Of a stretch of DNA of 64,000 nt, positions 218 through 1,763 are shown piece by piece. This stretch comes from a virus. Taxonomy: Duplodnaviria; Heunggongvirae; Uroviricota; Caudoviricetes. The translations under genes and the position numbers were made by a program. The first letter of the stretch is position 1. The number at the start of each line of letters is the position of its first letter. The notes beneath the pieces are model-generated. The model searched no databases. It saw nothing but the letters and a program-made list of their open reading frames with translations, and was not told where the DNA came from. The stretch is taken from IMG/VR virus record IMGVR_UViG_2778261375_000003; one strand, 5' to 3'.

Positions 218-682
218 CAGGGTTTTCGTCATGGTTAGCGACTTTGCGGCGGTTTAGAAACTGACCATTAAAGTAAATGCAAACGATGATCTGATGATGG
301 TAGCGGCCTAAGAAGCCAGACGCCACGGGGTATGAGTCGTCCCCCGTCAAAAAATCGACCGCAGAGTGTCCCCGTCTGTGTATTAGGGAACGGGGAGGCA
401 CAACAGGTAAGGGCGCTGGTGTGATTAACCAGATGAACGAGAAGGGGCCATCTGTTGGTCAGCGTCCTTTCCTGTTGCGTCTTCTTTTCAGCGTAACAGC
501 GGTGCTTAACAGCACTTTGGGTACAGTTCCACGAATTTACGGGTATATCCCGTCATGCTGAAGGCGCTAATCACGCTGGAAGCCAGGGTTGTGCATCCCC
601 TGTTACCGAATTGCAGCCAGGGCGCGGTGCGCCGAAAAGCATACGGAGGTGGAAGCCCTCGCCGGAGACGTACCCGGCAAGT

Positions 683-758
683 GATGGTGTAGCTCAGCGG
701 TTAGAGCGGTTGACTGTTAATCAACGGGTCGATGGTTCAAATCCATCCACCATCGCCA
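683..758 (+). tRNA. tRNA-Asn (anticodon GTT)
   Basis: cloverleaf traced by hand: acceptor gatggtg/caccatc, D-arm gctcagcggttagagc, anticodon loop ctGTTaa, T-arm gatggttcaaatccatc, 3' CCA. Confidence 0.9.
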
Positions 759-760
759 AT

Positions 761-836
761 GCCGGTTTAGCTCAGTTGGTAGAGCGCCTGCCTTGTAAGC
801 AGGATGTCAGCGGTTCGAGTCCGTTAATCGGCACCA
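761..836 (+). tRNA. tRNA-Thr (anticodon TGT)
   Basis: acceptor gccggtt/aatcggc (one G-U pair), anticodon loop ctTGTaa, T-loop ggttcgagtcc, 3' CCA. Confidence 0.9.
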
Positions 837-1763
837 GCACAACAGGTAAGGGTATTTTGCGACGTCGGAGATCGCCGAGCTTGGCAGAGGGTTCGAATCC
901 CTACGAAGTACCCTTACCGTTGTGATGAATGCGCAGGCTGATGCGCGAAAGACATTGCAGCTATTGCGGAAAAGAGCTGTTCGGCGGGGCAATTAAACGC
1001 CCGTGAGAGTCTGAAATAACCGCAAGCCGGAGATCAGCACCGGTCATCACAACACAACAGGTAAGGGCATTCTCCCTTATGGGGCTTGGCTTAAATGCAT
1101 CGAGTGCTCTTACCGTTGTGATGAAGTGCAGCTCTTTGAAGCAACCAGAAGATAAGCATCTGGCTTCACAACATAAACCGCAGGAACGACCAATAAACGG
1201 TAGTCCGTATGGAGAACCCCCCGTTGAGGAAGAGGCCTGGCCGGAACCGTAACCGGCACTACAACGTTGAGAACACTGGCGTAACGGGGTCATATCCCAA
1301 TCTACGAATAAATGTTGCGTTGCAGCGTGACAACCAGTGTTCTCAACATTGTGGTGAATGCACAGGCTGATGTGCCGCAACTACAGTAGTGCGCGCTTTG
1401 CGGGGCTTGCTACAACCCTGTGTCGGAGTTCAGCACCGACCATCACAGTTTGATTCTCTGGCATGAGCATAACGCTGAAATAAGTCCAGTCTGGTGCGGC
1501 CCGATCACCCGCCGTTAGCTCCACGAAACGGAGCACGTAACAGGTAAGAGTATTCTCCTGTAACGGGTTCATATCCCAATCTACAGGTCCACCAGGAATG
1601 CTCTTTCCGTTGCGGTGAATGCGGCTAAGCGCACGCGGGGAAATGGTTATATCTGTCCATTATTTCTCCTTATTTCCCCGTCCACGGTGGATAACCAGCC
1701 AAAGGACACCGGGAGGCACCCGGCACCGCAACCTTATTTCCCAACCAGTAATGAGGTTAATAA

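Follow-up and report, generated by a model that had tools for sequence, protein, structure and literature searches.

The stretch of DNA analyzed here (the window, 64,000 nucleotides) belongs by sequence comparison to a P1-like phage, with 98% identity to P1 (NC_005856) from P1 position 68670, and the same comparison identifies the region of interest as the untranslated + strand leader of the ban operon, which C1 represses. This operon starts at positions 1..27 (+ strand), where the P1 record has the C1 operator Op72 (operator Oban-ab) together with the Pban promoters P1ban/P2ban, and the whole array described below would be transcribed from there; the P7 record also notes the operator Op72/Oban-ab as controlling tRNA genes. 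Further 3' on the + strand, P1 carries a misc_feature named “dicF-like region” (122..216), in which Rfam gave no DicF match and whose 3' end is an intrinsic-terminator-like hairpin with a U-run (188-216). This strong-looking terminator sits between Pban and the array and is the sole terminator-like site that a terminator scan found on the + strand of 1-2700; no sigma-70-like promoter was found 3' of it.

Two tRNA genes lie inside the leader, both on the + strand and both called by ARAGORN, namely tRNA-Asn (GUU; 683..758, 74.5 bits with the Rfam tRNA model) and tRNA-Thr (UGU; 761..836, 72.9 bits), the latter with an encoded CCA end whose last base abuts the second unit of the array. Directly 5' of tRNA-Asn is a conserved spacer module (612..682, +) with 90–94% blastn identity to L047 and L121, which is also found directly 5' of the array element in two lambdoid contigs. 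A second conserved spacer, the “pre-hairpin” module (1451..1534, +), contains the small hairpin GCUCC-ACGAAAC-GGAGC; Klebsiella phage Kp4882-1 and several lambdoid contigs have copies of this spacer, with 79–88% identity, directly 5' of such elements. The first protein-coding gene 3' of the array, according to the P1 annotation and the ORF list, is the TerB-like tciA (1764..2189, +), followed by tciB, tciC, tRNA-Ile/Met(CAU) at 2464-2539, and ban (P1 annotation, ORF list, and ARAGORN). From the regulated promoter through the array to this first ORF, the untranslated leader measures ~1.7 kb, which is unusually long.

The array itself consists of five copies of one composite module, which we call HB, made of a hairpin H followed by a domain B. 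A covariance model (R1) built from homologues in other phages matches exactly five units in the window, all on the + strand, and nothing elsewhere in the 64 kb. Unit 1 (398-498, 36.8 bits) has hairpin H1 (398-478) without a B domain; unit 2 (837-1054, 139.4 bits) joins H2 (~838-924) to domain B1 (919-1051), which is 98% identical to lambdoid phage copies; unit 3 (1055-1173, 44.3 bits) joins H3 (1055-1125) to a shortened B that lacks the first inner hairpin, and homologous short units are present in Sashaviruses and P7; unit 4 (1259-1450, 108 bits) joins domain B2 (1348-1447) to H4 (1257-1356), whose arms are altered compensatorily and form an inverted repeat (23-nt arms, 91% complementary); and unit 5 (1535-1733, 72.8 bits), located in the tciA 5' leader, joins H5 (1539-1620) to domain B3 (1611-1730), of an STnc100/PasD-like subtype. 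None of the array units has its own terminator or U-tail. Each of the five hairpins is far more stable than its dinucleotide shuffles, with z-scores of −5.4 (396-482), −5.7 (837-927), −5.8 (1050-1127), −6.5 (1250-1362), and −4.9 (1533-1622), and for each of them 0 of 200 shuffles matched the native fold. The initial annotation had described five related long-hairpin units at 395-1630 with the tRNA-Asn/Thr pair embedded in one array; its count and quoted repeat motifs are confirmed, but the array reaches ~1733, the repeated unit is composite (H, then B), and the tRNA pair separates unit 1 from unit 2 and is part of neither. Both internal submotifs are present, but cagcaccgRYcatcaca actually corresponds to the closing helix of B together with the hairpin that precedes its 3' strand, and ggtcatatcccaatctac is common only to hairpins 4 and 5, in their apical parts.

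H is a hairpin of ~20 bp (stems of 19–26 pairs with single bulges or mismatches), whose base is conserved as CAACA-GGUAAGRGCAUU / CAGUGCUCUUWCC-GUUG and includes a bulged A as well as a conserved non-Watson-Crick position, and whose apical part is variable, with a T-arm-like hairpin there in some copies. B, directly 3' of H, is a four-way-junction domain that has, from 5' to 3', a closing helix of 5–7 bp, a first hairpin, a variable insert of 14–145 nt, and a last hairpin abutting the 3' strand of the closing helix; a whole HB unit measures ~120–280 nt. The loops of the B hairpins are complementary (GCUGA/UCAGC), which gives B a cloverleaf-like, tRNA-shaped topology, and this loop–loop pairing is present in nearly all full copies and is changed jointly to GUCGA/UCGAC in two distinct sequences. 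Across 113 distinct copies, 96% of the cells pair compared with 36–51% in slid controls, and compensatory changes occur in 21 of the 32 pairs (278 cells vs. 65.5 in shuffles), bearing in mind that the homologues were gathered by a 16-mer at the H/B junction and that conservation of the H/B core is therefore partly imposed. When 18 diverse copies were aligned independently with MAFFT, 94.9% of cells paired vs. 30–56% in slid controls, with both sides changed in 14 pairs. These compensatory changes indicate selection on pairing, not decay. The G·U pairs are abundant, one pair being U·G in 61 of the 113 copies, and R1 scores the + strand well above the minus strand (139 vs. 23 bits for unit 2, 108 vs. 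24.8 for unit 4, and 73 vs. 12 for unit 5); together, the G·U pairs and this score asymmetry point to an RNA on the + strand. A family of structured small RNAs, as had been suggested among other options from the window alone, is therefore supported, its helices covarying across >100 distinct copies from unrelated phages with a defined strand. Among close P1 relatives, whole units are lost or gained, and the operon is kept even without one or two of them, which means that no single unit is indispensable; the end-points of these deletions and duplications fall in the repeats, which are thus recombinogenic.

The module has a match in 117 phage records (Punavirus, lambdoids, Uetakevirus, Sashavirus, and Taipeivirus), in at least 120 IMG/VR contigs, and in 1061 of 5426 E. 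coli genomes, there with a median of one copy and always in a prophage or P1-like plasmid context; the phage records and E. coli genomes that contain the module have no annotation of it. Lambdoid, P22-like, Sasha-like, and Ackermannviridae phages mostly have just one copy of it, often with co-oriented tRNAs nearby. The lambdoid location is between Q and the holin gene, or 3' of the CI repressor, at the start of the antitermination-dependent PL and late operons (the mEp460 copy lies 3' of PL), and an intrinsic terminator lies 3' of many lambdoid copies, as expected of an sRNA gene; the Sashavirus module lies between structural genes. All tRNAs within 1.5 kb of a module are co-oriented with it, the H hairpin abuts tRNA ends, and the same type of H precedes different cargo, either B or, as seen in lambdoids, the tmRNA-like M element described below. 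On this sequence evidence, HB is a real, largely undescribed phage RNA family found in many unrelated enterobacterial phages.

The closest described RNAs are STnc100 and PasD. In a search of all Rfam families at permissive E-values, the only meaningful matches were the three tRNAs and a sub-threshold STnc100 match (RF02076) in B3 (1611-1730), which reaches 39.2 bits (gathering score 47) and covers model positions 31-147 of 206. The copies of P7 (43 bits) and Ro157 (38 bits) and PasD itself (38.3 bits) also remain below 47, compared with 207.7 bits for the genuine STnc100 copy of phage Min27; HB units 2–4 have no STnc100 match in Rfam, and the main B subtype of the array (GGCUGA + UCAGC loops) has no Rfam match at all. 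PasD has been described as a prophage sRNA bound by Hfq, detected by RIL-seq and verified on northern blots, with Hfq association and trans base-pairing reported, and STnc100 has been described as a related prophage sRNA (bioRxiv 10.64898/2026.05.13.724894). Both share with HB the core of B, in which the closing helix reads GGUGAAU...CACC and is abutted by the last hairpin, CCGGG-AGGCA-CCCGG, as well as phage late-operon or moron contexts near tRNAs and TciB-like genes. In contrast, canonical STnc100/PasD have no H hairpin, carry their own terminator, and are single genes, whereas the array units are in tandem. A stand-alone sRNA would have the 5' leader and 3' terminator (STnc100 model positions 1-30 and 150-206), but in unit 5 the match ends at model position 147, there is no terminator, and the tciA ribosome-binding region follows within 30 nt. 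Given that the array units lack the terminator and U-tail of STnc100/PasD, Hfq dependence is not implied. We considered PasD as a member of the HB family and rejected it, as R1 has no match in phage 2B8, and therefore PasD shares only a B-like core; the STnc100/PasD link would concern the B domain only, at sub-threshold Rfam scores. Other known RNAs were set aside as well: ribozymes and riboswitches have no Rfam match of any kind in the region, a hammerhead core suggested by “CUGAUG” in the first B hairpin has no helix II and variable flanks, the miRNA matches obtained from all Rfam families at permissive E-values merely reflect long hairpins, and the 66-nt sRNA HnrS (PMC13502914) is unrelated to the array.

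The M element (217..397, +) lies directly 5' of hairpin H1 and is a tmRNA-like message module of ~180 nt, about half the size of E. coli ssrA (363 nt). Both K751 and lambdoid contigs have conserved copies of it, and its hairpins show compensatory changes (RNAalifold). It carries a tag-like frame of ten codons, ANDDLMMVAA* (265..297, +; GCA AAC GAT GAT CTG ATG ATG GTA GCG GCC TAA), which has no canonical start codon and places its stop codon in the loop of a small hairpin, and its 10 codons plus stop are kept in 12 distinct homologous sequences with synonymous or conservative changes. Several features are those of tmRNA: a tag frame in a resume-codon context (UAAAU followed by GCAAACGAU) with a C-terminal hydrophobic-Ala-Ala, a tag of the form AND[D/E/N]....[A/V]A equal in length to the enterobacterial ANDENYALAA, the position of the stop codon in a hairpin loop, and a 5' segment that resembles the D-loop analogue and P2a. 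The 14-mer TAAATGCAAACGAT of the tag context is, elsewhere in viral contigs, a marker of genuine tmRNA genes, and the tag ANDDLMMVAA is picked by relaxed ARAGORN, whose “tmRNAp” calls on M place the tRNA-like halves at non-homologous positions between loci. With default settings ARAGORN finds no tmRNA in M, a tRNA-like domain (acceptor with G3·U70, T-arm, and 3' CCA) was located neither by eye nor by RNAalifold or relaxed ARAGORN, and the Rfam tmRNA_permuted model reaches 24.1 bits at 206-311 (cut-off 47), over the unstructured tag region only. M also contains GUUUUCGUC, a 9–10-nt antisense match to the host ssrA tag codons, which may pair with host ssrA and thereby lower tagging.

The likeliest reading, to which we give about an even chance of being right, is that the + strand leader encodes a polycistronic precursor of two tRNAs and tandem structured RNA modules, in which H would act as a processing or insulating hairpin and B would act in trans. 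The modules themselves, their strand, conserved structure, and distribution, and the sub-threshold STnc100 match of one of them are observed; that the leader is a single transcription unit, that H serves in processing, and that B acts in trans is what we infer, and we found nothing usable in the literature on the transcriptome, sRNAs, expression, or interactions of the array region of P1. The transcript would be made once C1 repression is lifted, a host RNase that is specific for double strands or guided by structure, for example RNase III, would cut it in or close to the H hairpins, the tRNA ends would be cut by RNase P and the 3' processing enzymes, and the tRNAs would be released together with several stable B-domain RNAs; these would act in trans, as their relatives STnc100/PasD are reported to do, with the variable B insert lending each copy a distinct specificity. 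That H could be a processing signal for the tRNA operon, as the initial annotation had also contemplated, is plausible. The H stems do provide the roughly two helical turns of largely uninterrupted double-stranded RNA expected of an RNase III hairpin, and a role of RNase III here is conjecture on our part; the base of H is strongly conserved in sequence, which would be more in line with recognition by a specific partner than with a generic RNase III site. Two further observations count against the precursor reading, namely the strong-looking terminator between Pban and the array and the gain or loss of whole units among close P1 relatives.

There are precedents for such an arrangement. The species 1 and 2 RNAs of T4 are stable RNAs co-transcribed with phage tRNA clusters, and DicF (prophage Qin) and the C4 RNA (P1/P7, made by RNase P) are sRNAs cut from phage polycistronic transcripts. 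The array resembles them in that non-coding RNA shares a unit with tRNAs or with phage early-operon genes, and their release needs host RNases, as the processing of the P1 array presumably would. The array has no similarity to these RNAs in sequence or structure, and Rfam gives no match to DicF or C4 in it.

An alternative that we regard as unlikely, yet with a real share of the probability, is that the B domains and the T-arm H hairpins, together with the phage tRNAs and the adjacent M element, are tRNA/tmRNA mimics, i.e., tRNA-shaped decoys or cofactors rather than base-pairing sRNAs, directed at the host translation or trans-translation machinery or at tRNA-targeting nucleases (anticodon nucleases, colicin-type tRNases, and defence systems). 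The resemblance of B to tRNA is considerable: a four-way junction closed by a helix that reaches 7 bp, then a 3-nt joiner, a first hairpin, a variable region, a 5-bp last hairpin flush with the 3' strand of the closing helix, loop–loop pairing where the D and T loops would meet, T-loop-like UUCAG or UUCGA in the last-hairpin loop, and, in some copies, a CACCACA-A-CCA end. The units are, in addition, packed against real tRNA genes of the same strand, with the conserved tmRNA-type tag frame of M directly upstream. The T-arm-like GGGTTCGAATCCC noticed at the outset in one unit is real (888-900): H2 has at 885-904 a 5-bp stem with a 7-nt UUCRANY loop, and 13 of the 113 distinct homologues have such a hairpin, with covarying stems and in each case beside the 3' arm of H. 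On the other hand, that is only a minority of the H elements; the H2 T-arm is separated from the hairpin end by at least 8 nt and a 13-bp stem, and the other four units of the array have none. Relaxed ARAGORN (-i -ps80) calls an intron-containing tRNA at 1351-1447, which is exactly B2, but shuffled sequences give ~5 calls each at the same setting. At normal thresholds, ARAGORN and the Rfam tRNA model call only 683-758, 761-836, and 2464-2539 in the region, and the Rfam tRNA, tmRNA, and YrlA models remain below threshold on every unit. Furthermore, the closing helix lacks G3·U70, CCA is absent in most copies, there is no fixed-size anticodon arm, the conserved tRNA tertiary nucleotides are missing, and the loop–loop helix has 5 bp, so that B resembles tRNA only in topology. 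It is possible that the B domain and the T-arm hairpins have a tRNA-like shape and descend from tRNA.

Similar comparisons can be made with other phage-borne RNAs. YrlA combines a long stem with a tRNA-like (T-arm) module, and GOLLD and ROOL are phage-borne structured RNAs beside tRNA genes; HB recalls the former by its long stem plus T-arm module and the latter two by its location. The YrlA match in the region (25.6 bits vs. 69) lies over the two real tRNAs and covers no unit, and to our knowledge the host E. coli has no Ro/Rsr. GOLLD and ROOL, at 600–800 nt, are much larger than an HB unit, and Rfam gave no match to either in the region.

Rather improbable as well, in our estimate, is a purely cis-acting leader, in which the stacked hairpins would serve the operon itself without any trans products, either protecting the 1.7 kb of untranslated transcript against RNases and Rho-dependent termination or acting as stabilisers or regulators of tRNA maturation and of tciA/ban expression. 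This would agree with an array that fills the unusually long leader from regulated promoter to first ORF, with the lack of own terminators in its units, with unit 5 directly in the tciA 5' UTR, and with the lambdoid element at the start of antitermination-dependent PL and late operons. Against it, the element is elsewhere single-copy with its own terminator, lies between structural genes in Sashaviruses, and has a conserved tertiary loop–loop contact and a four-way junction that exceed the needs of generic shielding, and the P1 relatives without one or two units still keep the operon. The position of the mEp460 copy 3' of PL led us to consider a put-like antiterminator, since the HK022 put RNA, with two stem-loops in ~70 nt, lies just 3' of an early promoter and acts on RNA polymerase (PMC9378689); HB, as a hairpin plus four-way junction of 170–280 nt, bears no resemblance to that architecture, and this candidate was therefore set apart.

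A bolder proposal, which we consider a long shot, is that P1 and many lambdoid, P22-like, and Ackermannviridae phages share a modular RNA toolkit against the host translation-rescue and tRNA machinery, composed of M, B, and H. M would be a miniature tmRNA-derived message combining the 10-codon degradation-tag frame with the 9–10-nt ssrA antisense, the B domains would be tRNA-shaped partners or decoys, and H would be the conserved punctuation that lets host nucleases cut these modules out of any operon. If this were true, the phages would reprogram or block trans-translation, or deflect tRNA-targeting defences, by means of RNAs alone.

Finally, it is very improbable that these are recombination or palindromic DNA elements (attC-like or REP/ERIC-like), tRNA pseudogenes, or coding sequences (Plp/Upl), given that, although the deletions and duplications of P1 relatives end in the repeats, the P1 records annotate plp and upl on the minus strand here, and the hairpin ends CACAAC ... 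GTTGTG loosely recall integron attC cores, the strand-asymmetric G·U pairing and the model scores point to RNA, a median of one copy per E. coli genome is not that of a dispersed host repeat, the ends GCACAAC / GTTGTGA deviate at 1 and 2 positions from the attC core RYYYAAC / GTTRRRY, and the compensatory changes together with the absence of tRNA-model hits in the units, where relaxed and intron-permitting ARAGORN calls stay at the shuffle rate, indicate structural selection and not the decay of the tRNA-derived pseudogenes initially suggested. The minus-strand ORFs plp/upl and 66-401, the latter already suspected of being spurious, gave no Pfam match, and relatives of 95–98% identity do not maintain them; we reject them as genes.

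In summary, and with a precursor of tRNAs and structured small RNAs as the likeliest reading, a covariation-supported module is shared by hundreds of enterobacterial phages, prophages, and P1-like plasmids and is absent from Rfam and RefSeq annotation. Defining HB gives a family open to modelling and searching, ties the poorly understood sRNAs STnc100/PasD to a wider set of RNAs with tRNA-like architecture, and cleans up the annotation of P1, where plp and upl are spurious genes. P1 is, of course, a tractable and inducible system in which these RNAs can be approached, and the tag element of M, if functional, would be the first sign of coliphages tampering with or imitating trans-translation.

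The repeated long hairpins that the initial annotation had placed at 395-1630, around the tRNA-Asn/tRNA-Thr pair, do form a real array of five related units, but its 3' limit lies at about 1733, and its repeat is a composite module other than the one then assumed, named HB, made up of a hairpin (H) and, directly 3' of it, a further domain (B). A repeat finder recovered all the quoted motifs, together with a 23-nt inverted repeat at 1257-1279 / 1334-1356, and, compared with dinucleotide shuffles, the five hairpins fold at z-scores between -4.9 and -6.5, with 0 of 200 shuffles equalling them. 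By means of R1, a covariance model of HB built from homologues in other phages and run with filters off, the units were located on the + strand at 398-498 (unit 1, hairpin only, 36.8 bits), 837-1054 (unit 2, H2 with a T-arm-like hairpin, plus B1, 139.4 bits), 1055-1173 (unit 3, H3 plus a shortened B, 44.3 bits), 1259-1450 (unit 4, H4 with compensatory arm changes, plus B2, 108 bits), and 1535-1733 (unit 5, H5 plus B3, 72.8 bits), and no further R1 match was found in the 64-kb window. The tRNA-Asn and tRNA-Thr genes lie between units 1 and 2, with the CCA end of tRNA-Thr abutting unit 2, and the spacers 612-682 and 1451-1534 are themselves conserved modules, found just 5' of HB elements in other phages.

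Over window positions 1-2600, identity is 98% with phage P1 (NC_005856, starting at position 68670) and 98.3% with phage JL22. The P1 record places here the C1-controlled operator Op72 with the Pban promoters (1-27), a “dicF-like region” (about 122-223), trnA (Asn) and trnT (Thr) in this leader, the plp and upl ORFs on the minus strand, and then, on the + strand, tciA, tciB, tciC, trnI, and ban in that order, and the P7 record states that this operator controls the tRNA genes. From these records, the array lies within a long leader, untranslated and read on the + strand, that belongs to an early operon under repressor control. The “dicF-like region”, in which Rfam found no similarity to DicF, is closed at 188-216 on the + strand by a strong intrinsic-terminator-like hairpin (GCCCATCTTCGGGTGGGC, then a run of seven T). 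This hairpin separates Pban from all that lies 3' of it, and transcription of the tRNAs and the array needs either read-through or an unrecognised promoter; no internal terminator was found in the leader after 216. As to the minus-strand ORFs, namely P1 plp (“putative lipoprotein”, 961-1380), upl (1381-1572), and the ORF at 66-401 that had been suspected of being spurious, none has a Pfam match or is seen to be maintained among relatives 95-98% identical, and all overlap helices covarying on the opposite strand; we take them to be spurious, and plp and upl are probably annotation errors that have spread through many P1-like records.

The H consensus is CACAAC-A-GGTAAGRGCATT ... CAGTGCTCTTWCC-GTTG, and that of B is GTGGTGAATGC, a hairpin GCRCA·GGCTGA·TGYGC, a variable insert of 14-145 nt, a hairpin GCCGG·AGATCAGCA·CCGGC, and CACCACA. 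B comes directly after H in each distant phage group with array pieces; the homologues were gathered with a 16-mer at the H/B junction, and conservation of that core is thus partly imposed by the search. With the structure written by hand on a MAFFT alignment of 18 diverse copies, 94.9% of cells pair vs. 30-56% with slid partners, and 14 pairs show changes on both sides vs. 3.4 in shuffles. R1 gave 144 matches in 100 loci, and in the 113 distinct sequences among them, 96.0% of cells pair vs. 36-51% when slid, with compensatory changes in 21 of 32 pairs (278 cells vs. 65.5 in shuffles), this second alignment being fitted to R1 and so biased towards it, a bias of which the MAFFT alignment is free. 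The H base keeps one conserved non-standard pair (U·U in 74/113). In almost every full copy, the two B hairpins have complementary loops (GCUGA/UCAGC); the joint change of these loops to GUCGA/UCGAC in two distinct sequences gives limited but real support to a predicted loop-loop contact. Since G·U pairing is common (at one pair, 61 of the 113 copies have U·G and the others have C-G or U-A), and since R1 scores in the window are strand-asymmetric (139 vs. 23, 108 vs. 25, and 73 vs. 12 bits, + vs. minus), HB is an RNA read on the + strand, rather than a symmetric DNA palindrome.

Close relatives differ by gains and losses of whole modules: reference P1 is without B1 and H3, SJ46 is without B2, tRNA-Ser(UGA) replaces B2 and H5 in P7 and D6, and Ro157c2YLVW has an additional tRNA-Tyr. 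Therefore, the repeats recombine, and no individual unit is essential. Arraying is not P1-specific, given that D6 carries an HB copy outside the main array, downstream of trnI (L005 3638-3796), and that some lambdoid contigs (among them L085, L048, L058, and L034) have two tandem HB units. Distant BLAST found array pieces in lambdoid phages of Escherichia, Klebsiella, Salmonella, and Cronobacter, and also in Uetakevirus BUCT554, Sashaviruses, and Taipeivirus/Ackermannviridae (K751 and others), and the junction 16-mer occurs in at least 120 IMG/VR contigs. Of 5426 complete E. coli genomes, 1061 contain HB, at a median of one copy, always in prophages or P1-like plasmids and never annotated; this copy number and location exclude a dispersed host repeat. 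Lambdoid copies are flanked either by Q antiterminators (PF06323, PF03589) upstream and holins downstream, or by CI-type repressors (Peptidase_S24) upstream; in mEp460, HB, with an intrinsic terminator after it, separates the cI terminator/PL region from the first early-left gene. The closest ORFs are mostly co-oriented with HB, and every tRNA within 1.5 kb (Arg-UCU, Met/Ile-CAU) shares its strand. These are classic “moron” and phage-tRNA positions, in the most heavily transcribed, antiterminated operons. On the minus strand of mEp460 (L002 1-158), close to the antirepressor gene, Rfam also finds isrK above threshold (67 bits) and a truncated match to C4 antisense RNA (44.2 bits), an immI-like arrangement reminiscent of P1.

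Besides tRNAs, the sole meaningful Rfam match was that of 1611-1730 to STnc100, at 39.2 bits (model positions 31-147; gathering score, 47 bits). A genuine STnc100, that of the Stx2 phage Min27, reaches 207.7 bits and has a B-like core between a short leader and a terminator but, unlike HB, no H hairpin; there (L135 2471-2730), AsxR/AgvB-type sRNA matches on the other strand come immediately after the + strand STnc100, and both converge on a common terminator region downstream of stx2B. PasD, which a 2026 preprint describes as an abundant prophage sRNA bound by Hfq and to which it describes STnc100 as structurally related (10.64898/2026.05.13.724894), lies in phage 2B8 between a TciB-like gene and an esterase gene, where it has no R1 match. 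PasD scores 38.3 bits against the STnc100 model. B3 is thus a sub-threshold match to the STnc100/PasD group; neither H nor the commoner B subtype (units 2 and 4) has an Rfam counterpart. TciB/TerB-like genes adjoin such an element in P1 (window 1535-2353, B3 upstream of tciA and tciB) and in lambdoid 2B8 (L254 43637-44094, the TciB-like gene upstream of PasD), and these same neighbours suggest a linked cassette.

Upstream of H1, at 217-397 on the + strand, lies M, a tmRNA-like element whose tag frame (265-297) reads UAAAU, then GCA AAC GAU GAU CUG AUG AUG GUA GCG GCC UAA, encoding ANDDLMMVAA* in ten codons; the E. coli tmRNA tag is ANDENYALAA. M homologues of K751 and lambdoid contigs keep exactly ten codons and the stop through 12 distinct nucleotide versions with synonymous or conservative variants (ANDEQFLAVA, ANDDLMLMAA, ANDDVVLMAA, ANDNTFLAVA, ANDDLMMAAA). 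The frame has no canonical start codon and an in-frame UAG 8 codons upstream, and its stop lies in a small hairpin loop with adjacent covarying hairpins. The resume context is UAAAU/GCAAACGAU, and its 14-mer has 110 other IMG/VR matches, 43 with an ARAGORN tmRNA and most others with tmRNA-type tags, which marks it as a tmRNA signature. In environmental viral contigs (L171, L246, L250, and others), ARAGORN calls permuted, two-piece tmRNAs that have an M-like resume context and tags of 10 residues (ANDERFALAA and ANDEVFALAA, for example). The Rfam permuted-tmRNA model aligns the M tag stretch at 24 bits; no tRNA-like domain was found for M, default ARAGORN was negative, and relaxed ARAGORN called “tmRNAp” with the correct tag in 6 of 10 loci, with inconsistent domain halves. 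The invariant GUUUUCGUC at its 5' end (224-232) is the exact reverse complement of E. coli ssrA nt 96-104/105, covering tag codons GAC GAA AAC, and could pair with the host tmRNA message, at modest significance (post hoc, E-value about 0.05 in a small search). M occurs in 691 of the 5426 E. coli genomes, mostly in P1-like plasmids, is annotated in none, and appears not to have been described previously; in an exhaustive survey of 2014, ssrA was confined to mycobacteriophages and Bacillus phage G (PMC4131195). In Klebsiella phage K751 (L012, Ackermannviridae), a non-coding stretch of about 3.3 kb (1472-4809) holds a tRNA-like piece without anticodon arm (about 2138-2205), a promoter-like TTGTCA-17-TATAGT, M with the tag ANDNTFLAVA, an HB unit (2500-2675), a further T-arm motif (3158), a tRNA-Met, and an STnc100 match above threshold (3997-4211, 48.8 bits).

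What the array shows is a modular RNA structure, conserved and strand-specific, that is packed tightly with tRNAs into a single leader and has one domain matching STnc100 below threshold. The reading we favour, at about even odds, is a polycistronic transcript that is processed into tRNAs and structured small RNAs. Upon C1 inactivation, the leader would be transcribed from Pban and cut into tRNAs and stable B-domain RNAs, with H as the boundary mark between modules; the H duplex spans about two helical turns, is always 5' of a cargo domain, and in lambdoids precedes both B and M. H may direct a double-strand-specific nuclease such as RNase III, or insulate the folding of each module, and the B RNAs would act in trans, their variable insert distinguishing the copies. 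The weak points of this precursor model are the terminator-like hairpin between promoter and array, units without the terminators and U-tails typical of Hfq sRNAs, and the strongly conserved H-base sequence, which hints at a specific partner.

The main rival, tRNA mimicry by B, we consider unlikely. B is connected like a cloverleaf (a closing helix of at most 7 bp, three joining nt, a first hairpin, a variable region, and a last 5-bp hairpin flush with the 3' strand of the closing helix), its loop-loop contact falls where D and T loops would touch, the last loop has UUCAG or UUCGA, a few copies end in ...CACCACA-A-CCA, and 13 of 113 H hairpins contain a true T-arm-like hairpin with covarying stems. 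Against this, tRNA, tmRNA, and YrlA models gave nothing at threshold on the units, ARAGORN and Rfam returned only the three known tRNAs as tRNAs, and the one striking relaxed ARAGORN call, which coincides exactly with B2 (1351-1447), is no more frequent than background. A leader that acts purely in cis seems slightly less probable still. DNA-level or pseudogene explanations are very improbable, with no tRNA model at threshold and compensatory pair changes in the units, and the array is neither a tRNA-pseudogene set, as the initial annotation had entertained, nor an artefact; another suggestion of that annotation, a family of structured small RNAs, holds as a covarying module in many phages.

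HB is a phage RNA module that is conserved, widespread, and essentially without annotation, with one domain related to STnc100/PasD, and, because B is tRNA-like in shape and M is tmRNA-like, a translation-directed function may be regarded as a serious, testable possibility.
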